In this document: one piece after another, positions 5,639 to 19,358 of the stretch
Numbering within the stretch: the stretch's first letter is position 1
Layout of the letters: every line of letters begins with the position of its first letter
From: a virus
Lineage: Duplodnaviria; Heunggongvirae; Uroviricota; Caudoviricetes
Reading direction: 5' to 3' (one strand)
Virus record (IMG/VR): IMGVR_UViG_2534681835_000041
Length of the DNA stretch: 19,742 bases
Notes under the pieces: model-generated
The model's input: the letters and a program-made list of their open reading frames with translations, nothing else
What the model was told of the DNA's origin: nothing
Databases searched by the model: none
Position numbers and translations under genes: made by a program

Positions 5639-5692
5639 TGAACCGCCCCGGAAATCCTGGAGACTAAACTCCCTGAGAAAGAGGTAAACAGG

Positions 5693-6019
5693 ATGACTAA
5701 AAATACTCGTTTTTCCCCCGAAGTCCGTCAGCGGGCGATTCGTATGGTTCTGGAAAGTCAGGATGAATATGACTCACAGTGGGCGGCAATTTGTTCCATT
5801 GCCCCAAAGATTGGCTGTACGCCGGAGACTCTGCGTGTCTGGGTTCGCCAGCATGAGCGGGATACCGGGGGCGGTGATGGTGGGCTCACCAGCGCTGAAC
5901 GTCAGCGTCTGAAAGAGCTGGAACGTGAAAATCGTGAACTGCGCCGCAGTAACGATATCCTTCGCCAGGCTTCCGCTTATTTTGCGAAGGCGGAGTTCGA
6001 CCGCCTCTGGAAAAAATGA
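5693..6019 (+). CDS. IS3-family transposase OrfA (HTH, leucine-zipper)
   Basis: 108 aa '[22 protein letters not shown]...[30 protein letters not shown]'; ends in an A6 tract at 6011-6016 overlapping the orfB start. Confidence 0.9.
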
Positions 6020-6906
6020 TGCCACTGCTGGATAAGCTGCGTGAGCAGTACGGGGTCGGACCGGTATGCAGCGAACTGCATATTGCCCCGTCAACGTATT
6101 ACCATTGTCAGCAACAGCGACATCATCCGGATAAACGCAGTGCCCGTGCGCAGCACGACGACTGGCTGAAGAGAGAGATACAGCGCGTATACGATGAAAA
6201 TCATCAGGTGTACGGTGTGCGTAAAGTCTGGCGTCAGTTGTTACGGGAAGGAATCAGGGTGGCCAGATGTACAGTGGCACGTCTCATGGCGGTTATGGGA
6301 CTTGCCGGTGTTCTCCGGGGTAAAAAGGTCCGTACGACCATCAGCCGGAAAGCCGTTGCCGCAGGCGACCGCGTAAACCGTCAGTTCGTGGCAGAACGAC
6401 CTGACCAGCTGTGGGTGGCTGATTTTACTTACGTCAGCACATGGCAGGGCTTCGTCTATGTGGCGTTTATCATTGATGTGTTTGCCGGATACATCGTGGG
6501 GTGGCGGGTCTCATCGTCTATGGAAACGACATTCGTGCTGGATGCGCTGGAGCAGGCGTTGTGGGCCCGTCGTCCGTCTGGCACCATCCATCACAGCGAT
6601 AAAGGCTCTCAGTATGTGTCACTGGCCTATACGGAGCGACTAAAAGAAGCCGGATTACTGGCATCAACAGGGAGTACAGGCGACTCGTATGACAACGCGA
6701 TGGCTGAGAGCATCAATGGTCTTTACAAAGCGGAGGTAATACACCGTAAGAGCTGGAAAAACCGTGCAGAAGTGGAACTGGCCACACTAACGTGGGTGGA
6801 CTGGTATAACAATCGACGATTGCTGGGAAGGCTGGGCCATACTCCTCCGGCAGAAGCAGAAAAAGCTTATTATGCTTCCATCGGAAACGATGATCTGGCA
6901 GCCTGA
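6016..6906 (+). CDS. IS3-family transposase OrfB (DDE integrase core)
   Basis: 296 aa with the rve-type core ('WVADFTYV', 'HSDKGSQY', '[15 protein letters not shown]'); ATG at 6016 overlaps the orfA stop in the -1 frame. Confidence 0.9.
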
Positions 6907-6948
6907 GTTCACAGATAAAACACTCTCCAGGAAACCCGGGGCGGTTCA

Positions 6949-7354
6949 GTTCTTTGACTGGTTCAAAAGAGTGACTGGTTCTGGGTGAATCTCCTGCACT
7001 ACCCCCTGGTGCAACTCCTGCACTACCTGGTGAATTTGCTGCACCAGATAGTGAATTATTTGCACTACTCCCTGGTGAATCTCCTGCACCATCCAGATGA
7101 AGGAGATAGATATTAATTGAGTTACCTTTTTCACCTTTCCGGGTGACTTTTTTTACCAGCCCGGAATCACAAAGGGCCGCAATATGATTCATCACAGAAC
7201 GTTTGCTAATCTCGCACTGATCAGCAATATGCTGGTAGCTGGGCCAGCACTCACCCTGATCGCTGGCATTATCAGCCAGCTTGATCAGAACCAGTTTTCG
7301 CAATGGATTACCCACTCGAATTTTCATCGCTTTAACCATCAGCTCCATACTCAT
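6949..7354 (-). pseudogene. replication initiator O-like gene (N-terminal HTH domain), 3'-truncated by IS copy 1
   Basis: N-terminus 'LRKLVLIKLADNASDQGECWPSYQHIADQCEISKRSVMNHIAALCDSGLV' resembles the N-terminal DNA-binding region of lambda O and related replisome organisers. The ORF continues through iteron-encoded low-complexity sequence and then reads into the IS. ATG at 7354 overlaps the upstream stop. Confidence 0.5.
6983..7094. repeat. five imperfect ~21-25-bp direct repeats (iteron-like) inside the O-like ORF, next to an AT-rich stretch
   Basis: Units built on gtgaat/gtgcaa..tcctgcac start at 6985, 7009, 7030, 7051 and 7076 (spacing 24/21/21/25 bp); an AT-rich segment follows at about 7100-7140. 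Confidence 0.5.
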
Positions 7355-7575
7355 GCTGCACCTCCGAGATGCTTCATGTTTTTTCCGGAGCGAAAGGCTA
7401 TAAGCGGCATACTGACGCGGTAATTACGGCCCAGCGGTTCACAAATCACCTTCTGGCATTCACGGTCAACCAGGCTAACACGTAGAACATGCCCTGCAGG
7501 CGTGGTGTACCACTGACCCGGACGAGGACAACGGAAAGTTTGATTGGTAAACCGTTTGAAAATATTCCGGATCAT
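7351..7575 (-). CDS. hypothetical small protein (74 aa, Cys-containing)
   Basis: ATG at 7575 overlaps the stop of the Rha-domain gene (ATGA), and its own stop overlaps the O-like ATG (ATGA). No motif recognised. Confidence 0.45.
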   Translation of the reverse strand: MIRNIFKRFTNQTFRCPRPGQWYTTPAGHVLRVSLVDRECQKVICEPLGRNYRVSMPLIAFRSGKNMKHLGGAA

Positions 7576-8735
7576 TTGCGCCCCCTTACCTCTGAAGGGT
7601 TCAGCGACAAATTTATGAGGCAGGCCAGCGCCGAAGCATCATTAATATAGTCATATAAGCTAACAGCCAGCGGAGATTCGGCTTTTGCCAACATAGGATA
7701 AAGCTGCTGCAGCCAGACCTGATGAATTGATGAAATGTAGGAATAGAGAACACTGGCGTTATGTGCAACGTCGCTCGGTACAGAGGGCTTTGAAAGCTGT
7801 TTCTCCATCTGGTTAAAGGCATTGATGTATGCCTCTTTGAACTGGGCAGCACGTTTGCCAGTGAAGCCCATTGCCAGGAACGCGAAGCCGTCGCGGGTGA
7901 TGTGGTAGCAAGGAAGTTTGCGAGTACCGCCGTTGGGCTGGTGTACCAAAATTGATGTCTCCGCAAAATTGCGGGCACAAAACTCTGGAGAACAATCCAA
8001 AATGCGGATCTTTTTCAGAACATCGTCATGACGTTTAGAGAAGAAGTCAGCAACAGCCAAAGAAGATGTAACAGCCTGACCATCAACGATGGCAATTTCA
8101 GGTTGAGAGAGGGTTGGGAGAGTAGTCATGGTGACAGCCCCGGTAGTCAGTTTTTCAGAAAACTCACCACATGGGACGCCAATCACAGAGGTGGTGAGAC
8201 GTACAGGGTTGGCGTTACCGGAGACTACCGAACCCGGCCCGACCGAAGTCGGCCCTGTACGCCCCACCATAATTTGGGCGTAGCAATGCTCATGACACGA
8301 AAAAACCGCATGAGCGCGGTTATGCTCAGTAATCAATTTCAGGACGCCAATCCCGGCACCCGCTTTATAAGGTGCCTGAACAGTGTAACGTCCCGGAATG
8401 GCAGAATCAATGTGCTGGTGGTCCTTCACACTCAACAAAATCACGCCTGAATTTCCACAAAGGACTAAAGCACTCATGCGGGTAGTCTTTGCGAAGATAG
8501 ATAACGCGCTGTGTTTCTGGCTCCCAACGAATAACATGAACATAAAGTCCTCTTCCGTCACGAAACCAGCGGTTAAGTTCCTGCACAACTCGCCCCCCAC
8601 AGTCAGGTAAAGTTCTCTGTGGTTACTTACAGCCAGGTGATTTGGTAATCTGCATTCATACCGTAACAACAGGTGTTCAGCGACGCTGACCACCAGCTGT
8701 TGCGACAAACGGTTATTTGCCGTTAAACTGTTCAT
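7572..8735 (-). CDS. Rha-family phage regulatory protein with an unusual ~200-aa N-terminal extension
   Basis: Residues ~205-300 ('PEIAIVDGQAVTSSLAVADFFSKRHDDVLKKIRIL...YHITRDGFAFLAMGFTGKRAAQFKEAYINAFNQME') match the Rha domain. The 387-codon frame is open from an ATG at 8735 that overlaps the CII-like stop (ATGA). Alternative internal start at 8129 would give a 185-aa Rha-only protein. Confidence 0.5.
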   Translation of the reverse strand: MNSLTANNRLSQQLVVSVAEHLLLRYECRLPNHLAVSNHRELYLTVGGELCRNLTAGFVTEEDFMFMLFVGSQKHSALSIFAKTTRMSALVLCGNSGVILLSVKDHQHIDSAIPGRYTVQAPYKAGAGIGVLKLITEHNRAHAVFSCHEHCYAQIMVGRTGPTSVGPGSVVSGNANPVRLTTSVIGVPCGEFSEKLTTGAVTMTTLPTLSQPEIAIVDGQAVTSSLAVADFFSKRHDDVLKKIRILDCSPEFCARNFAETSILVHQPNGGTRKLPCYHITRDGFAFLAMGFTGKRAAQFKEAYINAFNQMEKQLSKPSVPSDVAHNASVLYSYISSIHQVWLQQLYPMLAKAESPLAVSLYDYINDASALACLINLSLNPSEVRGRK

Positions 8736-9283
8736 GCGTTAGTTTCTCCACAGACACAAAACGCCACGACGCCCGGAGCTGCACACTCGCGGGCGTCACT
8801 CTTTTCTGGAGCGCAAAAGATTTTGTAGACCAGTGCTGCATGCTCCTGGAGCTTCGAAATTGACAGATACAACTCATCATTAATTGCTGTCTGCTCGTGT
8901 GGCTCCACTACCCCATCTTCGATTGCCGAACGAATCTGCTTTGAGTAACTCCCGATCTGTTCGATGACTTCCAGCAGGCGCTGGTTTATATCGGCGTTCT
9001 CTACTTCCTCAAGTTCAGGAAGCGATACAAACACCCCACCAGCAGACTGTGCGACAGCATCCGCAATGTAGTGAGTGCCAGCCGCGCGCTGTAAAATCAT
9101 TGCCCATCCCAGCGGGAAAATCTGATCGCCATCTGCACGAAGGCGGTTGAATAAAGCGTTCTCTGTTACATCCAGCCACTCAGCAGCTTCAGCGTAACCC
9201 CCCGGCAACGCCGCGATAGTTTTTCTGACAGCTTTCACGTACCACTCAGGCTGTTTTTCCACTTTCCAGTGATGCTTACCCAC
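8732..9283 (-). CDS. phage regulatory CII-like protein (CP76-type), tentative
   Basis: 183 aa; pattern '...ALFNRLRADGD...GGVFVSLPELEE...' resembles the CII/CP76 family as I recall it. GTG start at 9283 with AGGAG 7 nt upstream; overlaps the cro-like 3' end by 8 nt. Confidence 0.5.
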   Translation of the reverse strand: MGKHHWKVEKQPEWYVKAVRKTIAALPGGYAEAAEWLDVTENALFNRLRADGDQIFPLGWAMILQRAAGTHYIADAVAQSAGGVFVSLPELEEVENADINQRLLEVIEQIGSYSKQIRSAIEDGVVEPHEQTAINDELYLSISKLQEHAALVYKIFCAPEKSDARECAAPGVVAFCVCGETNA

Positions 9284-9536
9284 GGCTTATCTCCTGTTCC
9301 TGTGGTTTAAACCCATTCTGGTTTTGGCTAGATTGAAAACGTGCCGGATAAAGAATCTGCATTTCGCTGATTTCACCCTTAAAAAAATTGGCCAGACGTT
9401 CTGCAAGATCGATAGATGGAATTTGTTCCAGTCTTTCAATACGACTCAGCGTCGCTGTATTGACCTGAACGCCCGCAGCAACATGCTGCAAAGTAAATCC
9501 GTGCGCCTTACGCACATTCCGTAATGGTGATTGCAT
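9276..9536 (-). CDS. Cro-like HTH (XRE-family) regulator
   Basis: 86 aa with HTH 'FTLQHVAAGVQVNTATLSRIE'; ATG at 9536 with GGAGG 5 nt upstream; transcribed divergently from the CI-like gene across an operator-rich spacer. Confidence 0.65.
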   Translation of the reverse strand: MQSPLRNVRKAHGFTLQHVAAGVQVNTATLSRIERLEQIPSIDLAERLANFFKGEISEMQILYPARFQSSQNQNGFKPQEQEISRG

Positions 9537-9633
9537 ATAACCTCCACATATTGCGTGATGAGCATATTATTTCACGCAAATATTTTGCGCAAGTTGATTT
9601 GCTTAACGCGCAATAAAGAAATGTAATAAACGC
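9537..9633. promoter_or_regulatory. oR-like immunity control region with divergent promoters (pR-like toward cro, pRM-like toward cI)
   Basis: Inverted repeats TTGCGTGA(9551-9558)/TCACGCAA(9572-9579), palindrome TTGCGCAA (9585-9592), TTGC-N7-GCAA (9599-9613). Minus-strand TTGCGC(-35)-17-TAATAT(-10). Plus-strand TTGCTT-18-TAATAA ending 6 nt before the cI ATG, which has no SD. Confidence 0.5.
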
Positions 9634-10326
9634 ATGAACATAGGAAATCGAGTCAGACAACTTCGCCAGGCGAAGAACATGAAAATCGCCGATCTCGCTG
9701 AAGCAATAGGAGTGGATGCGGCGAATATCTCGCGCCTCGAAACAGGTAAGCAGAAACAATTCACTGAACAAGCCCTGAGTAATATTGCCAGGAGCTTAGG
9801 TGTTGATATTGCTGATCTCTTTACCTCAGACCTCAAAAGTAATACTGTATGTAAAAACAGTATTAGTGAGGATGTTGCGCAGGTGAAGGATGTATTCCGT
9901 ATTGAAATGCTGGATGTCAGTGCCAGTGCGGGAAATGGCCTTATCCAGGGCGGTGATGTCATTGATGTGATTCATGCCATTGAATACAGAACTGATAATG
10001 CTGTATCGATGTTTGGTGGACGACCAGCAAATCACATTAAAGTTATCAACGTTCGTGGGGACAGTATGTGTCCAACCATTGAGCCAGGAGATCTCATCTT
10101 CGTTGATATCAGTATCAATCAGTTTGATGGGGATGGTATATATGTATTTGGTTTTGATGATAAAATTTACGTCAAACGACTGCAAATGATACCTGATAAA
10201 CTGCTGGTAATTTCTGATAATCAGATTTACCGCGAATGGGGAATTACCAGCGAAAACGAACATCGGTTTATGGTCTTTGGAAAGGTCTTAATCAGTCAGT
10301 CACAAACCCTTAAGCGACACAATTAA
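9634..10326 (+). CDS. CI-like phage repressor (HTH plus S24 LexA-type autopeptidase domain)
   Basis: N-terminal HTH ('MKIADLAEAIGVDAANISRLETG'); C-terminal S24 motifs 'VRGDSMCPTIEPGD' (Ser nucleophile) and 'KIYVKRL' (Lys). Confidence 0.8.
   Translation: MNIGNRVRQLRQAKNMKIADLAEAIGVDAANISRLETGKQKQFTEQALSNIARSLGVDIADLFTSDLKSNTVCKNSISEDVAQVKDVFRIEMLDVSASAGNGLIQGGDVIDVIHAIEYRTDNAVSMFGGRPANHIKVINVRGDSMCPTIEPGDLIFVDISINQFDGDGIYVFGFDDKIYVKRLQMIPDKLLVISDNQIYREWGITSENEHRFMVFGKVLISQSQTLKRHN
9843..9862. promoter_or_regulatory. near-consensus LexA (SOS) box inside the cI coding sequence
   Basis: TACTGTATGTAAAAACAGTA, against consensus TACTGT-(AT)4-ACAGTA: both outer hexamers match exactly. A possible -35 TTTACC at 9820-9825 places the box over a -10 position (TACTGT). 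Confidence 0.5.
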
Positions 10327-10348
10327 CCCCCTACCTCAACATCAATTA

Positions 10349-10368
10349 GCCACCAGAAGGTGGCTTTT
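10349..10368 (+). terminator. rho-independent terminator downstream of cI
   Basis: Stem gccacc / ggtggc with agaa loop, followed by TTTT at 10365-10368; 23 nt after the cI stop. Confidence 0.6.
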
Positions 10369-10382
10369 CATTACCCACCAAA

Positions 10383-10435
10383 TTGCATATCTCGCAATAA
10401 AAACACTTGCACAATGCGCAACTTCATTTTATCTT
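10383..10435 (+). promoter_or_regulatory. oL-like operator pair with a candidate pL-like promoter
   Basis: Two perfect TTGC-N7-GCAA sites (10383-10397, 10407-10421), the same motif as at 9599-9613; TTGCAC(10407)-17-TATCTT(10430-10435) as a possible rightward promoter. Confidence 0.45.
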
Positions 10436-10846
10436 TCTTTCCAGACCTACAAACAAGGTACTAACAAAATTTGGTTGTAACACGGCGTATGGCACATGCG
10501 TCGTTAGCGGTCTGGGGACGTTAAAGGGGACAATCCACTCCTTGCTCGGGCAAACAAACCAGGTAGCCGGAATGTGCAAGTCAATGAGGATGCTGATAAG
10601 ACGCCTAACCAGCGTGGCGATTCGGTTTGACGCCTGGGAAGAGACCAGGGTGCAACGATGAGGGCATTTATGGAACCGCGACAAAGTGTGGTGCCGTAAC
10701 TGGCTAAGTGCTCTCAGCGTTGTGGTAATCCGCGAAATGGCGCGGCGGTAAGTATGGCGGGGTTATTCCTTCCCCGTTGAGGACACCGGGTTGTCAGGTT
10801 GACCATACGCTTAAGTGACAAGCCCACCACAACAGCCACTGCTTTG

Positions 10847-10892
10847 GCGGTACCAGTTTGTACACTTGCTTCCGGCTGGTACCGCTCTTTTT
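10847..10892 (+). terminator. strong hairpin plus T-run in the leader upstream of the first rightward gene; overlaps a boxA-like motif
   Basis: Perfect 10-bp stem gcggtaccag(10847-10856)/ctggtaccgc(10876-10885), 19-nt loop, then TCTTTTT. CGCTCTTTTTAC at 10884-10895 resembles boxA (CGCTCTTTAACAA). Confidence 0.5.
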
Positions 10893-11029
10893 ACAAAACA
10901 GAGAAGAGCATCACCGGACGACGGGCTCATAACCCAATCCACCCGGGCGGCTGCCACCGCAGGTGTTCTTCTCTGTTTTGTGGAGAAACCAACCGACCTT
11001 GCAGGGTCGATATGATGAGGAGCAGCAAA

Positions 11030-11392
11030 ATGGCTAGCGAACGCAGTACTGATGTGCAGGCATTTATCGGGGAGCTGGACGGCGGCGTATTTGAAACCAA
11101 AATCGGCGCAGTTCTCAGTGAAGTCGCTTCCGGTGTGATGAACACGAAAACCAAAGGTAAGGTCTCACTCAACCTGGAAATCGAACCATTTGATGAGAAC
11201 CGTGTGAAAATCAAACACAAACTCTCATATGTTCGCCCGACTAACCGCGGGAAAATTTCCGAAGAAGACACCACCGAAACGCCGATGTATGTCAATCGCG
11301 GTGGTCGCCTGACTATTCTGCAGGAAGACCAGGGACAATTACTGACTCTTGCCGGTGAACCTGACGGAAAACTCCGCGCAGCAGGTCATTAA
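11030..11392 (+). CDS. hypothetical phage protein (120 aa)
   Basis: ATG at 11030 with GAGGAG 7 nt upstream; the track ORF extends upstream to 10799 but that part is low-complexity with no RBS. Size and position resemble a CPS-53 YfdP-type gene, recalled from memory only. Confidence 0.5.
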   Translation: MASERSTDVQAFIGELDGGVFETKIGAVLSEVASGVMNTKTKGKVSLNLEIEPFDENRVKIKHKLSYVRPTNRGKISEEDTTETPMYVNRGGRLTILQEDQGQLLTLAGEPDGKLRAAGH

Positions 11393-11457
11393 TATCGTTC
11401 TTAATTAACTGATTATTTATCTCATCACTGAATATCTTTATATAGTGAGGACTTATT

Positions 11458-12282
11458 ATGTCTCAGAACTTAGACGCAACCGCAATTAATCAAATCCATG
11501 CCCTTATTTCTGCTCAGGGTGTTAATGAAATTATCAGTAAGATTGGTGCCGATGCTGTGGCATTGCCTGAGAATTTCCGCATTCATGATCTGGAAAAATT
11601 TAATTTAAATCGCTTCCGTTTCCGTGGTGCGCTTTCCACTGCCAGCATCGATGACTTTACCCGTTATTCTAAAGATCTTGCAGATGAAGGCACCCGCTGC
11701 TTTATTGATGCTGATAATATGCGTGCCGTCAGTGTGCTTAACCTGGGTACTATTGATGAACCAGGTCACGCAGATAACACCGCCACTCTCAAACTGAAAA
11801 AGACAGCACCGTTCTCTGCTCTGTTGTCTGTTAATGGCGAGCGTAACTCCCAGAAATCACTGACAGAATGGATTGAAGACTGGGCCGACTACCTTGTGGG
11901 CTTTGATGCTAATGGTGACACCATTCAGGCAACAAAAGCGGCTGCGGCGGTCCGTAAAATCACGATTGAAGCAAACCAGACCGCTGATTTTGAAGATAAT
12001 GACTTCAGCGGCAAACGCTCCCTGATGGAGTCTGTCGAAGCGAAGACCAAAGACATTATGCCAGTGGCATTTGAATTTAAATGCATTCCGTTTGAAGGTC
12101 TGAAAGAACGTCCGTTTAAATTACGCCTCAGCATTATCACTGGCGATCGTCCGGTACTGGTTCTGCGCATTATTCAGCTGGAGGCGGTGCAGGAAGAAAT
12201 GGCTAACGAATTTCGTGATCTGCTTGTTGAGAAATTCAAGGACAGCAAAGTAGAAACCTTTATTGGTACTTTCACCGCCTGA
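11458..12282 (+). CDS. hypothetical phage protein (274 aa; possibly YfdQ/DUF2303-like)
   Basis: ATG at 11458 with GAGG 7 nt upstream; long ORF with ordinary composition. The family assignment rests on size and context recall only. Confidence 0.6.
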
Positions 12283-12409
12283 TTTCATTACTGCAAATGC
12301 CCCTGAGGGGGCATTTATGGAAACGTAATTTACTCAATAATCGCCGGATGGTGAGGGATTCTTTTTACCAGAATTCAGCGCGGTGCAGCGCATATACGTG
12401 GAGAACAAA

Positions 12410-12853
12410 ATGTCATTTATTAAAACTTTTTCCGGGAAACCAGTCAATGAACCAATAGCTGTTGGTGAATCTGCTGATGAGTCTGTGCGAGTTCGTTCAA
12501 ACCGACCGGAATACTCTCCGGAGTTTGAGCAGGCATGGCTGGCATATCCCAAACGTGCTGGTGGCAATTCAAAATCTGCAGCCTTCAAAGCCTGGAAAGC
12601 CCGTTTGAATGAGGGGGTAAACCCCGAAACCATGCTGGAAGGTGTGAAACGCTACGCGGGCTGGGTATCTGCGATGGGTAACAGCGGCACACAATTTGTG
12701 AAACAGGCTGTCACGTTCTTTGGTCCGGATCGTCATTTCGAAGAATCCTGGGAAGTTCCTGCGGTATCTGCAGCCAGACGTGAGGACCCGTACTTCAAAG
12801 CCAGTTACGACAACGTGGACTACAGCCAGATCCCGGCAGGATTCAGGGGGTGA
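12410..12853 (+). CDS. hypothetical phage protein (147 aa) with 'FEQAWLAYPKRAGG..KSAAFKAWKA' motif
   Basis: ATG at 12410 with GGAG 6 nt upstream (the track ORF starts at a GTG at 12383). The motif resembles ones I associate with phage replication-associated proteins, unverified. Confidence 0.5.
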   Translation: MSFIKTFSGKPVNEPIAVGESADESVRVRSNRPEYSPEFEQAWLAYPKRAGGNSKSAAFKAWKARLNEGVNPETMLEGVKRYAGWVSAMGNSGTQFVKQAVTFFGPDRHFEESWEVPAVSAARREDPYFKASYDNVDYSQIPAGFRG

Positions 12854-12948: not shown

Positions 12949-13601
12949 TGAGTAATAAATATTGCCAGGCGCTGGTAGAACTGCGGAACAAACCAGCCCA
13001 TGAACTGAAGGAAGTGGGCGATCAGTGGCGCACGACGGACAGCATTTTCTGGGGGATTAACACCATGTTTGGCCCGTTTGTTCTGGATCTGTTCACTGAC
13101 GGTGATAACGCCAAATGTGCTGCGTATTACACGGCGGAAGACAACGCGCTGGCGCATGACTGGTCAGAACGTCTTGCGGAGCTTAAAGGTGCTGCCTTTG
13201 GTAATCCCCCATACAGCCGCGCCAGTCAGCATGAGGGGAAATACATCACTGGCATGCGTTACATCATGAAACATGCCAGTGCCATGCGTGATAAAGGCGG
13301 GCGCTATGTTTTCCTGATCAAAGCTGCCACCAGCGAAGTGTGGTGGCCGGAAGATGCAGACCATATTGCTTTTATTCGCGGGCGTATTGGTTTTGAACTG
13401 CCTGCCTGGTTTATCCCGAAAGACGAAAAGCAGGTGCCAACAGGTGCTTTCTTCGCTGGTGCTATTGCTGTTTTCGACAAGACCTGGAAGGGACCGGCAA
13501 TCAGCTACATCGGGCGCGATGAACTTGAGGCATGTGGTGAGGCATTTCTGGCGCAGGTTCGCCAGCAGGCGGAAAAACTGGTCAGGGAGATGGCGGCATG
13601 A
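12948..13601 (+). CDS. phage N6-adenine DNA methyltransferase (Dam-type)
   Basis: 'FGNPPYS' (NPPY catalytic motif) in a 217-aa protein typical of the phage Dam family; stop overlaps the next start (ATGA). Confidence 0.7.
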   Translation: MSNKYCQALVELRNKPAHELKEVGDQWRTTDSIFWGINTMFGPFVLDLFTDGDNAKCAAYYTAEDNALAHDWSERLAELKGAAFGNPPYSRASQHEGKYITGMRYIMKHASAMRDKGGRYVFLIKAATSEVWWPEDADHIAFIRGRIGFELPAWFIPKDEKQVPTGAFFAGAIAVFDKTWKGPAISYIGRDELEACGEAFLAQVRQQAEKLVREMAA

Positions 13602-13924
13602 CGACGTTAACTCAATGCCAGCAGCAGGTGCTGGATATGCTGATTTCTTACCAGAAAGAACGTGGCTTCCCGCCAACTAATCAGGAGGTGGCAACCATGC
13701 TGGGATACCGTTCAGTGAATGCAGCGGTGGAGCATCTTCGCGCACTGGAGAAAAAAGGCGTCATCACGATAAAGCGTGGCGTGGCATGGGGGATAACGCT
13801 TCATACCGCGGTGAAGGACGACGACAGCGAGGCAGCCGGGATTATCCGCGCACTGCTTGCCGGTGAGGAAAACGCCAGACTGCGTGCAGCCCACTGGTTA
13901 CATGAGAGGGGCCTGAAAGTATGA
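13598..13924 (+). CDS. LexA N-terminal DNA-binding-domain homolog lacking the S24 peptidase domain
   Basis: 'MTTLTQCQQQVLDMLISYQKERGFPPTNQEVATMLGYRSVNAAVEHLRALEKKGVITIKRGVAWGITL' aligns by eye with E. coli LexA 1-70 ('[68 protein letters not shown]'). The protein ends at 108 aa with no Ala-Gly cleavage site or Ser/Lys dyad. Confidence 0.7.
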   Translation: MTTLTQCQQQVLDMLISYQKERGFPPTNQEVATMLGYRSVNAAVEHLRALEKKGVITIKRGVAWGITLHTAVKDDDSEAAGIIRALLAGEENARLRAAHWLHERGLKV

Positions 13925-14277
13925 AGCTGATCCTGCCTTTCCCGCCCAGCGTGAACACGTACTGGCGACACCCCAACAAAGGGGCGTTTGCTGGTAAGAG
14001 TCTGATAAGCGCAGCGGGGCGCAAATTCCAGAGCGCGGCATGCGCAGCAATAGTTGAGCAGTTACGTCGTCTGCCGAAACCAACGTCGGCACCTGCTTCA
14101 GTGGAGATCGTGTTGTTTCCTCCGGATAACCGGATCCGCGATCTGGACAACTATAACAAGGCGCTGTTTGACGCCCTGACCCACGCGGGTGTGTGGGAAG
14201 ACGACAGACAGGTGAAAAGAATGCTGGTGGAGTGGGGACCGGTTATCCCGAAAGGGAAGGTCGAGATCACTATCTGA
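13921..14277 (+). CDS. rusA: RusA-family Holliday junction resolvase, 3' end replaced by the IS insertion
   Basis: 'LPFPPSVNTYWRH...RDLDNYNKALFDALTHAGVWEDDRQV' matches RusA. The stop codon TGA (14275-14277) is supplied by the first bases of the IS; the displaced 11-codon tail is found after the IS at 15588-15623. Confidence 0.75.
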   Translation: MKLILPFPPSVNTYWRHPNKGAFAGKSLISAAGRKFQSAACAAIVEQLRRLPKPTSAPASVEIVLFPPDNRIRDLDNYNKALFDALTHAGVWEDDRQVKRMLVEWGPVIPKGKVEITI

Positions 14278-14316
14278 ACCGCCCCGGGTTTCCTGGAGAG
14301 TGTTTTATCTGTGAAC

Positions 14317-15207
14317 TCAGGCTGCCAGATCATCGTTTCCGATGGAAGCATAATAAGCTTTTTCTGCTTCTGCCGGAGGAGTATGGCCCAGCCTTCCCAG
14401 CAATCGTCGATTGTTATACCAGTCCACCCACGTTAGTGTGGCCAGTTCCACTTCTGCACGGTTTTTCCAGCTCTTACGGTGTATTACCTCCGCTTTGTAA
14501 AGACCATTGATGCTCTCAGCCATCGCGTTGTCATACGAGTCGCCTGTACTCCCTGTTGATGCCAGTAATCCGGCTTCTTTTAGTCGCTCCGTATAGGCCA
14601 GTGACACATACTGAGAGCCTTTATCGCTGTGATGGATGGTGCCAGACGGACGACGGGCCCACAACGCCTGCTCCAGCGCATCCAGCACGAATGTCGTTTC
14701 CATAGACGATGAGACCCGCCACCCCACGATGTATCCGGCAAACACATCAATGATAAACGCCACATAGACGAAGCCCTGCCATGTGCTGACGTAAGTAAAA
14801 TCAGCCACCCACAGCTGGTCAGGTCGTTCTGCCACGAACTGACGGTTTACGCGGTCGCCTGCGGCAACGGCTTTCCGGCTGATGGTCGTACGGACCTTTT
14901 TACCCCGGAGAACACCGGCAAGTCCCATAACCGCCATGAGACGTGCCACTGTACATCTGGCCACCCTGATTCCTTCCCGTAACAACTGACGCCAGACTTT
15001 ACGCACACCGTACACCTGATGATTTTCATCGTATACGCGCTGTATCTCTCTCTTCAGCCAGTCGTCGTGCTGCGCACGGGCACTGCGTTTATCCGGATGA
15101 TGTCGCTGTTGCTGACAATGGTAATACGTTGACGGGGCAATATGCAGTTCGCTGCATACCGGTCCGACCCCGTACTGCTCACGCAGCTTATCCAGCAGTG
15201 GCATCAT
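14317..15207 (-). CDS. IS3-family transposase OrfB (copy 2)
   Basis: Identical 296-aa translation to 6016-6906. Confidence 0.9.
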
Positions 15208-15530
15208 TTTTTCCAGAGGCGGTCGAACTCCGCCTTCGCAAAATAAGCGGAAGCCTGGCGAAGGATATCGTTACTGCGGCGCAGTTCACGATTTTCACGT
15301 TCCAGCTCTTTCAGACGCTGACGTTCAGCGCTGGTGAGCCCACCATCACCGCCCCCGGTATCCCGCTCATGCTGGCGAACCCAGACACGCAGAGTCTCCG
15401 GCGTACAGCCAATCTTTGGGGCAATGGAACAAATTGCCGCCCACTGTGAGTCATATTCATCCTGACTTTCCAGAACCATACGAATCGCCCGCTGACGGAC
15501 TTCGGGGGAAAAACGAGTATTTTTAGTCAT
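15204..15530 (-). CDS. IS3-family transposase OrfA (copy 2)
   Basis: Identical 108-aa translation to 5693-6019. Confidence 0.9.
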
Positions 15531-15642
15531 CCTGTTTACCTCTTTCTCAGGGAGTTTAGTCTCCAGGAAACCCGGGGCGGTTCAATCAGTAAGTACGAGA
15601 AAACGGCGGGTGCAGCCGCCTGATCAAGAGGAGAAACGAAGT

Positions 15643-18704: not shown

Positions 18705-18780
18705 GGCCCTTTAGCTCAGTGGTGAGAGCGAGCGACTCATAATCGCCAGGTCGCTGGTTCAAATCCAGCAAGGGCCACCA
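18705..18780 (+). tRNA. ileZ: tRNA-Ile2 (anticodon CAT, lysidine type) or tRNA-Met
   Basis: 76-nt cloverleaf folded by hand: acceptor ggccctt/aagggcc, D-stem gctc/gagc, anticodon loop ctCATaa, T-loop ttcaaat, encoded CCA. Close to my recollection of E. coli ileX. Symbol given by analogy with the Stx-phage ileZ-argN-argO cluster. Confidence 0.85.
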
Positions 18781-18789
18781 TATCACATA

Positions 18790-18866
18790 CCGCCATTAGC
18801 TCATCGGGATAGAGCGTCAGCCTTCGAAGCTGGCTGTGCGGGGTTCAAGTCCCCGATGGCGGTCCA
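18790..18866 (+). tRNA. argN: tRNA-Arg (anticodon TCG as read here)
   Basis: 77-nt cloverleaf: acceptor ccgccat/atggcgg, D-stem gctc/gagc, anticodon loop cTTCGaa, T-arm cgggg-ttcaagt-ccccg, encoded CCA. Symbol by analogy. Confidence 0.8.
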
Positions 18867-18879
18867 TTATCAGCATCAT

Positions 18880-18956
18880 GCGTTGTTAGCTCAGCCGGAC
18901 AGAGCAATTGCCTTCTAAGCAATCGGTCACTGGTTCGAATCCAGTACAACGCGCCA
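18880..18956 (+). tRNA. argO: tRNA-Arg (anticodon TCT, reads AGA)
   Basis: 77-nt cloverleaf: acceptor gcgttgt/acaacgc, anticodon stem attgc/gcaat with loop cTTCTaa, T-arm actgg-ttcgaat-ccagt, encoded CCA. Symbol by analogy. Confidence 0.85.
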
Positions 18957-19243
18957 CACCACACTTATCTGCCCTGACTCTCTTTTGCGGGCTTTTTATT
19001 ACAGGAAAGACACCGGACAGTGAAATGTTAAATGCCTCACAATTCAGGTAGTCGACTGTTGCCTGACATGCTGAGCGTTTGTTAAAAAAATCCTGCATGA
19101 TGAATCCCCCTGGGCGGCGGGGCATAATGACAGATGTTTGGTTGCGTATTGTATAGGCAAGTTGCGGATTCTGTCTGGTCATTGCAGAATTCACCGGGAG
19201 GCACCCGGCATCATGCTGTATACAGAGATTAGGCATATATCCA

Positions 19244-19268
19244 GGCTCCTCATCGCAGGAGCCTTTTT
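19244..19268 (+). terminator. rho-independent terminator in the tRNA-to-nanS-p gap
   Basis: Stem ggctcct / aggagcc with 6-nt loop, followed by TTTTT. Confidence 0.6.
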
Positions 19269-19273
19269 ACATG

Positions 19274-19299
19274 CAAAAAAAGCCCGAGTAGGTTCGGGC
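19274..19299 (-). terminator. minus-strand rho-independent terminator (back-to-back with the previous one)
   Basis: Hairpin gcccga-gtaggt-tcgggc (19282-19299) preceded on + by A7 (19274-19280), which is a T-run on the minus strand. Confidence 0.45.
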
Positions 19300-19358
19300 A
19301 ACAGCATGAGATACTTGCATTGTCATTTTTATCGTGTGGATTTTAACCAGGGTTTATA

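Follow-up and report, generated by a model that had tools for sequence, protein, structure and literature searches.

The window analysed here, a stretch of 19,742 nucleotides (nt) from a virus of the Caudoviricetes (IMG/VR record IMGVR_UViG_2534681835_000041), contains a cI-type repressor gene, and its sequence and that of its homologues indicate that a functional LexA operator (SOS box) is very probably maintained by selection inside this gene. We further propose, with a probability of roughly 0.45, that the operator controls an internal promoter from which DNA damage would release a C-terminal isoform of cI, thereby weakening repression. The two features on which the analysis centres are the following.

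9634..10326, plus strand: cI-type repressor gene, 230 amino acids (aa), with helix-turn-helix (HTH) and peptidase S24 domains (Pfam)
9843..9862, unstranded: LexA operator (SOS box) TACTGTATGTAAAAACAGTA, codons 70-77 of cI; heterology index (HI) 2.09 and conservation in 192/193 homologues

A first-pass annotation had placed a near-consensus SOS box matching both outer hexamers at 9843-9862, where cI encodes its linker, and had put its chance expectation in 20 kb at about 0.001. The sequence at these positions is exactly TACTGTATGTAAAAACAGTA, which matches TACTG(TA)5CAGTA at 17 of 20 positions, with both outer hexamers exact. The box is in frame with cI, and its codons 70-77 (N-T-V-C-K-N-S-I) belong to the interdomain linker between the HTH (HTH_3/HTH_26/HTH_31, Cro/C1-type, residues 3-64) and S24 (Peptidase_S24, residues 104-218, E = 6e-19) domains assigned by Pfam. 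The analytic expectation for an exact outer-hexamer match in the window (~0.001) agrees with the earlier figure. With at most one mismatch allowed, TACTGT-N8-ACAGTA occurred once against 0.03 expected from shuffles, and the CTGT-N8-ACAG core alone occurred twice against 0.21 expected.

Operator quality was scored with the HI, using a Berg-von Hippel matrix derived from 18 E. coli operators (Table 4 of PMC3009722). The box obtained 2.09, in the top tier of real operators: the 18 published operators span 0.27-9.29, and the box scored better than 13 of them, including those of recA, lexA, sulA, dinI and uvrB. The runner-up 20-mer in the whole window had an HI of 13.0. The annotation had also listed a weaker CTGT-N8-ACAG at 8627-8642, a position that needs correction, since the motif lies at 8617-8632. 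It has a GC-richer spacer (CTGTGGTTACTTACAG) and an HI of 16.2, and because this value is outside the range of real operators, the motif is most likely a chance occurrence and was rejected as a second LexA site.

To what extent the box is conserved as DNA was assessed on cI homologues, of which a protein search returned 1,225. The DNA of 325 homologous genes was taken from viral contigs and from contigs representing one genome per species; divergent queries were used for this collection, a first scan of viral contigs having given near-identical copies only. The conservation set consisted of 193 distinct nucleotide sequences with 55-100% aa identity to cI of the window, plus one outlier at 40%. 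CTGT-N8-(A/C)CAG was present at the same codons in 192 of the 193 distinct homologous genes. These 192 genes carried 43 distinct 20-mers encoding varied peptides (TV[CYHFS][KINEL][NHYDSTP]S), all 43 with an HI between 0 and 6.8, and the base preferences at each position paralleled those of real operators, position 15, for instance, being A or C only. Box-bearing genes were found in Escherichia, Shigella, Salmonella, Citrobacter, Kluyvera, Pseudescherichia and Klebsiella, as well as in Buttiauxella, Trabulsiella, Pantoea, Mixta and Proteus, and the box was also present in cI of Cronobacter phage ENT47670 (50% identity).

In protein alignments, linker residues 65-86 of cI were hypervariable except for the invariant T71, V72 and S76, and the codons of these three residues were frozen at synonymous positions (Thr71 ACT in 192/192, Val72 GTA in 188/192, Ser76 AGT in 191/192). 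Codon 75 was NNC in all 192 genes, though seven amino acids were encoded there, and the third base of codon 70 was almost always T. Other invariant Thr, Val, Ser, Ala, Gly, Pro, Leu and Arg codons of the same genes mostly had 1-2.5 bits of codon entropy. A sliding-window analysis gave a synonymous diversity of 0.04-0.10 at codons 67-79 only, and of about 0.3-0.7 along the rest of cI. Conservation beyond what the codons require, which had been suggested as a check, was therefore decisively confirmed and, together with the HI, argues that the SOS box proposed in the cI linker is genuine and not due to chance. These patterns suggest that selection on DNA keeps the box in the interdomain linker, the only part of cI whose protein sequence varies freely. 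As the box stayed constant while the HTH domain and the cI operators diverged across phages, the recognizing factor would be one shared by the hosts. Only one other four-fold codon of the gene was fully frozen, codon 4 (9643-9645), which was GGA in 192/192 homologues; this freeze at Gly4 probably reflects a translation-initiation constraint or some overlapping control element close to where cI begins.

The box was absent in relatives with 40-44% identity (Phaseolibacter, ST101-KPC2phi6.1, and the P22/HK022-like cI of ST104), and 11 other S24-type phage repressor loci scanned for in-gene LexA boxes had none better than HI 11.5. It is also missing from Citrobacter phage Omnitron, in which the S24 domain of the repressor (1174-1935) is 49% identical to that of the cI family while the N-terminal domain is unrelated. 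The Omnitron linker contains GGAGG plus TTG/ATG, and the domain shuffling occurred exactly at the linker. Given these absences, the box is a derived trait of one clade. The unrelated cI of the Stx2a phage Stx2_EH1846 carries TACTGT-N11-ACAGTA at nt 458-480 of the gene (HI 11.5 as a 20-mer), a striking palindrome with LexA-like arms and the wrong spacing that is probably not a LexA site. We also considered YmfK of the K-12 element e14 as the source of the "ymfJ/intE LexA" annotations; it is 23% identical to cI and lacks the box. Because YmfK is unrelated to cI, the old "LexA-regulated e14 genes" do not correspond to the cI box.

As for cI itself, the autocleavage residues Ala99-Gly100, Ser144 (GDSM) and Lys181 (VKRL), the last aligned with LexA K156, were invariant in the alignment of homologues. 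By its sequence, cI thus keeps all the motifs required for RecA-stimulated autocleavage. The elements of the internal transcription unit proposed here are listed below.

9820..9825, plus strand: putative -35 TTTACC, coding for Phe63-Thr64, weakly indicated by TTT in 192/192 homologues and fixed spacing
9843..9848, plus strand: putative -10 TACTGT, the left operator arm, read directly from the sequence; 3/6 consensus (T1, A2 and T6 kept)
9868..9872, plus strand: Shine-Dalgarno (SD)-like GAGGA before the internal GTG, from an anti-SD duplex-energy test across clusters of homologues
9883..10326, plus strand: putative nested open reading frame (ORF), from GTG codon 84 to the cI stop, 147 aa, suggested by an in-frame start and SD
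10348..10365, plus strand: intrinsic terminator hairpin 3' of cI, found by a terminator scan; an equivalent element is annotated in SfII

In our proposal, the box would be a high-affinity operator for host LexA, which when bound there would keep a weak rightward promoter (TTTACC-17-TACTGT) shut in undamaged cells, the box overlapping the -10 and the start site of this promoter. Upon DNA damage and LexA cleavage, a short transcript would start at about 9855 and extend as far as the cI terminator; the hairpin located directly 3' of cI would end this internal transcript too. The transcript would carry a ribosome-binding site and an in-frame start (GTG at 9883 here, codon 87 in most relatives), and its product would be an isoform limited to the C-terminal domain, with the dimerisation and S24 peptidase domain and without the DNA-binding domain. 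The isoform would then form mixed dimers with full-length cI or cleave cI in trans, weakening repression. The repressor gene would consequently hold a nested antirepressor, a LexA-timed input beside RecA-stimulated autocleavage. We thus infer from the sequence LexA binding, the activity and direction of the promoter, and the existence and function of the isoform. Tn5 Inh is an N-terminally truncated in-frame product that can poison the full-length protein via mixed oligomers, C-terminal fragments of the P22 c2, 434 and lambda repressors reportedly interfere with the intact protein, and S24 domains are capable of trans-cleavage. By analogy with Tn5 Inh and the repressor fragments, a C-terminal isoform would be expected to poison cI. 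The broader view that these prophages read both LexA loss and RecA*, through a gene within a gene whose product poisons or trans-cleaves cI once LexA is lost, is held more tentatively still.

The earlier suggestion that an upstream TTTACC makes the box overlap a -10 element stood in part. Its geometry is real, with TTTACC located 17 nt before TACTGT in the window and with Phe63 and CTGT separated by a constant 22 nt in 48/49 clusters and in ENT47670. The linker 3' of the box varies in length, and the combination of a fixed upstream spacing and a variable downstream linker points to a rightward direction, as do the in-frame start with its SD 3' of the box and the terminator that comes straight after cI. 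In the flanks of the box, conservation was limited to the protein-constrained CTN-TTT-ACN (Leu62-Phe63-Thr64), with Phe63 encoded by TTT in 192/192 homologues. The part of the suggestion that fared less well concerns the hexamers, which are discussed below with the other points against an internal promoter and isoform.

The nested ORF spans the C-terminal domain, including the Ala-Gly cleavage site and the Ser/Lys dyad, without the HTH. With a first criterion based on a 4-nt match, an in-frame start preceded by an SD-like motif was found 25-75 nt 3' of the box in 48/49 clusters, while codon shuffling gave 14.8 +/- 3.1 clusters and none of 1,000 shuffles reached 48. This criterion proved too permissive in the box-less control clade and was replaced by the duplex-energy test. 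In the box clade, 48 of 50 clusters had a duplex of -6 kcal/mol or stronger (median -7.2, codon-shuffle mean -2.7), against 2 of 13 box-less relatives (median -3.4), the latter consisting of ST104/HK022-like clusters, ST101phi6.1, Omnitron and Phaseolibacter. Codon 87 was GTG, ATG or TTG in 38/49 clusters, and at other Val columns GTG did not exceed 43%. The SD and start differed by clade (GAGG/AGGTG with GTG codon 84 or 87, AAGGA, GGAG, AGGAG-ATG, GGGGGG-GTG), and the 50%-identity outgroup ENT47670 has AAGGGGAGGA-6 nt-GTG. Such differences in SD sequence and start position among clades are the pattern expected of a function maintained through turnover, and the internal start and ribosome-binding site appear from these comparisons to be conserved beyond protein requirement. 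An internal start at Met92 (9907) was discarded, this residue being V, I or L in relatives and the SD being absent. Alternative-frame and antisense ORFs (9962-9603, 10263-9826) were likewise discarded as not conserved; ORFs in the +1 frame had mostly 9 codons and were variable or absent, and the +2 frame had none.

Several observations weigh against an internal promoter and isoform. The promoter hexamers are weak (4/6 and 3/6, or 7/12 consensus matches in total), and a promoter scan of the window did not call TTTACC-17-TACTGT. ENT47670 has TTC at Phe63, within the -35-like element, and several other Phe columns of cI likewise favour TTT. The accessible portions of the ST64B transcriptome papers mention no internal transcription start site. 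On the side of translation, loose SD counts run too high in purine-rich linkers, the control group has only 13 members, among them Omnitron, which has SD and start without the box, and the clusters are phylogenetically related, so that their counts are not independent events. Codon 87 was GTA, GTT or CTT in 11/49 clusters, among them the window (GTA), whose start would be GTG codon 84 (9883) with a long SD spacing of 10 nt. The best-scoring start was codon 95 in 16/50 box-clade clusters, which would truncate the domain. Finally, in an AlphaFold2 model of cI, the mean predicted local distance difference test score was 48.8 and the HTH domain alone was confident; this model was too poor to be used for the cI domain boundaries.

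Two further features of the window are needed to weigh the other explanations.

9549..9615, unstranded: cI/Cro operator region with TTGCG..CGCAA-type repeats, from an inverted-repeat search and direct reading
13598..13924, plus strand: LexA DNA-binding-domain (LexA-DBD) protein, 108 aa, no S24 domain (PF01726, E = 3.8e-18)

The cI/Cro operators, which have no resemblance to the LexA box, lie between cI and a divergent cro-like gene (9536-9276). A CII/YmfL-like gene and an Ash/Rha-type regulator are found downstream of cro, and cro and the lytic operon extend leftward of cI on the minus strand. The LexA-DBD protein belongs to phrog_362, and its gene is flanked by dam and rusA in a dam - lexA-like - rusA cassette. 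With residues 1-68 of E. coli LexA it shares 50% identity and a nearly conserved recognition helix, and it was found in 60 phage records, including mEp460, SfII, SfV, SfIV, cdtI and Stx2a/Stx2c phages. It may be an uncleavable LexA mimic of lytic growth and, in this phage alone, a possible further ligand of the box.

The operator might act without any promoter, as a roadblock or modulator of transcription from PRM/PRE, so that full-length cI mRNA would rise upon LexA cleavage, damping induction at low damage, or would change otherwise with the SOS state. Operator quality and DNA-level conservation fit this explanation equally well, and it is also favoured by the weakness of the internal hexamers, the silence of the promoter scan and the position of the box, about 210 nt into cI and downstream of the cI-cro control region. 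We nevertheless consider it unlikely, since it leaves unexplained both the fixed spacing to TTTACN beside a variable downstream linker and the co-occurrence of SD and start with the box (48/50 against 2/13), and since more repressor during SOS conflicts with a cI that keeps all its autocleavage motifs. A leftward promoter is a different possibility, as the box is palindromic and its AT-rich centre offers -10-like hexamers on both strands. The resulting antisense transcript would run through the 5' half of cI and PRM into cro and the early lytic genes, interfering with cI and bypassing PR repression, an attractive induction logic given that these genes lie leftward on the minus strand. However, there is no conserved -35-like element to the right of the box, where the flank is hypervariable in sequence and length; the outer base that would supply T1 of a minus-strand TACTGT is A in only some half of the variants, the others having G, against a plus-strand T kept in 40/44; and the downstream SD and start would have no explanation. 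On these grounds a leftward promoter seems rather improbable. A LexA-controlled rightward promoter could also produce a non-coding RNA, made of the cI 3' half and terminator and possibly processed, or a short alternative-frame peptide. The geometry would be identical to that of the isoform model, and promoters of small RNAs (sRNAs) within coding sequences are known, with the sRNA ending at the terminator of the host gene, as for MicL within cutC. Synonymous diversity, however, was 0.5-0.65 in the 3' half and end of cI, without seed-like constraint, there was no Rfam hit, and alternative-frame ORFs were short, variable or absent (+1) or missing altogether (+2). An sRNA in the cI 3' region was therefore rejected, and a non-coding RNA or small peptide is, overall, very unlikely.

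Two explanations concern the ligand itself. The LexA-DBD protein, which had been put forward as a possible binder, could be the main ligand of the box in this phage, in place of host LexA, if it were an uncleavable LexA mimic of lytic growth: it keeps the base-contacting N41, A42 and E45 in a domain half identical to that of LexA, and mEp460, SfII and Stx2a phages have both this protein and the box. But it is absent from the box-bearing ST64B, Eeyore and ENT47670, and present in SfV, SfIV, cdtI and Stx2c phages, which have other immunity regions. Its distribution being uncoupled from the box, it cannot account for the family-wide conservation; it fails as a family-wide ligand, would be at most an extra layer, and has little chance of being the main ligand even here. 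Alternatively, LexA might not be involved at all, and conservation could reflect a protein motif, T-V-x-x-x-S, or a hairpin formed by the cI mRNA. The palindrome of the window folds at -9.9 kcal/mol (z = -4.3), and T71, V72 and S76 are indeed invariant. The 44 distinct variants, however, contain no compensatory change, their changes being one-sided and often pair-breaking, so that a hairpin was ruled out for lack of covariation; an Rfam scan had no match at the box. Protein-level constraint, in turn, cannot explain frozen third positions and an NNC codon at a variable residue encoding seven amino acids, and the conserved sequence is the LexA consensus itself, not any palindrome. We regard a hairpin or protein motif as the least credible of these explanations. 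LexA control of an internal promoter and C-terminal isoform is the favoured mechanism.

The immunity region of the window is 99% identical to those of coliphage mEp460, PhiR47_1 and phiSTEC1575-Stx2k, 95.8% identical to those of the Stx2a-converting phages Stx2a_1447 and WGPS2, 90.5% to that of Shigella phage SfII and 72% to that of Eeyore. In Salmonella phage ST64B, the sb38 protein is 84% identical to cI and TACTGTATGTAAACACAGTG occupies the equivalent place. The cI region was found (at least 88% nt identity) in 1,040 of 5,426 complete E. coli genomes, including UTI89, O104:H4, O111:H8 and O157:H7.

The window itself is a rearranged prophage, probably a defective one. Compared with mEp460, positions 6949-12438 are inverted, the junctions lying at about 5641-6948 and at 12438, and there is a 3-bp overlap at the breakpoints. 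The inverted segment contains the 5' part of a replication gene, a 73-aa ORF, Ash/Rha, cII, cro, cI, phrog_204 and DUF2303, and the replication gene is split in two (7354-6713, minus strand; 12383-12853, plus strand). An IS3-family element is present at the left junction of the inversion. Two copies of this family, each with orfA/orfB, lie in opposite orientation at 5693-6906 (plus) and about 14275-15585 (minus), and both have an ALIL frameshift pseudoknot (RF01497) at 5974-6090 (plus) and 15133-15249 (minus); the minus-strand copy breaks up the region that follows rusA. Within the 387-aa "Ash + Rha" ORF (8735-7572, minus), Rfam matched C4 antisense RNA (82 bits) and IsrK Hfq-binding RNA (59 bits) at 8187-8274 and 8299-8375 (minus strand). 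This arrangement resembles the P1 immI c4/ant or the Gifsy-1 IsrK module, and the ORF may be an over-called fusion; the phage may have an RNA-controlled Rha/Ant-type regulator. Near the right end (18705-18953, plus; 19066-19274, plus; 19275-19334, minus), three tRNA genes are followed by STnc100 (176 bits) and AgvB (56 bits), an anti-GcvB sRNA, in a tRNA-STnc100-AgvB layout typical of a lambdoid late-regulatory/Stx-phage-like region.

In the literature searched, no prior description of an intragenic LexA operator in cI, or of a LexA-controlled repressor isoform, was found. The box sequences occurred in no paper text, nothing linked LexA with cI of ST64B, SfII or mEp460, the UTI89 locus tags of this prophage appeared in no paper, and CI repressor, LexA, internal translation and dominant-negative occurred together in no paper. 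Only promoter regions are scanned by PSOSP, a predictor of prophage SOS dependence, and intragenic sites of this kind would therefore be missed. An operator kept by selection within a repressor coding sequence and paired with an internal ribosome-binding site is outside the lambda paradigm. If the proposal is true, it would add a second SOS input to a repressor family that roughly one E. coli genome in five carries and that is found in Stx2a phages, SfII and ST64B. As this repressor type is so common, such an input would bear on the induction of Shiga-toxin phages by antibiotics or oxidative stress and on prophage-mediated lysis, and, the C-terminal domains being conserved, the isoform could also cross-induce co-resident prophages. 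More generally, a regulatory DNA element can be accommodated where a protein linker is hypervariable, and dual coding can be read from codon usage.

The box of SfII-type cI genes is identical to the E. coli umuDC and sbmC operators (TACTGTATATAAAAACAGTA), and the window box departs from these by a single base, G in place of A at position 9, which recA also has. The umuDC and sbmC operators and the window box have in common the CTGT-N8-ACAG core, an AT-rich spacer and the outer TA/TA. The chromosomal operators are intergenic and located in promoters of SOS genes, whereas the cI box lies within a phage repressor coding sequence, where it doubles as codons 70-77 and where the promoter is putative. 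As for phages, LexA reportedly acts at the rstA promoter of CTXphi. In Bacillus phage GIL01, LexA plus gp7 form the lysogeny repressor (PMC4551915). In both phages host LexA binds phage DNA directly in the lysis-lysogeny switch, as it putatively does at the cI box. Their boxes are nevertheless in promoter regions, with lytic promoters directly repressed, while the cI box is not at PR or PL.

Antirepressors offer another comparison. Coliphage 186 Tum and N15 AntC are said to be LexA-controlled antirepressors. Antirepressors under LexA control have been described in the Gifsy prophages (Lemire et al. 2011, PMC3121763). In all three systems, as in the model proposed for cI, host LexA gates a factor that inactivates the repressor after DNA damage, and these antirepressors can act in trans on related prophages. 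Each is encoded by a small gene of its own, served by an intergenic LexA box, and the repressors in these systems are as a rule non-cleavable. In the window, unlike these systems, the only credible box is located within cI, the candidate antagonist forms part of cI, in the same frame, and cI retains the Ala-Gly cleavage site and the Ser/Lys dyad.

Hex of phage 434 is encoded by a separate ORF 3' of 434 cI on the PRM mRNA and stabilises lysogeny (PMC3564112). The likeness to the proposed isoform is that RecA-dependent inactivation of the repressor is modulated by another protein, whose coding sequence accompanies or overlaps that of the repressor; the difference is that Hex is neither LexA-controlled nor a repressor isoform. 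The interfering fragments of the P22 c2, 434 and lambda repressors are, for their part, known as cleavage products or laboratory constructs, whereas the proposed cI isoform would arise from a dedicated internal start under LexA control.

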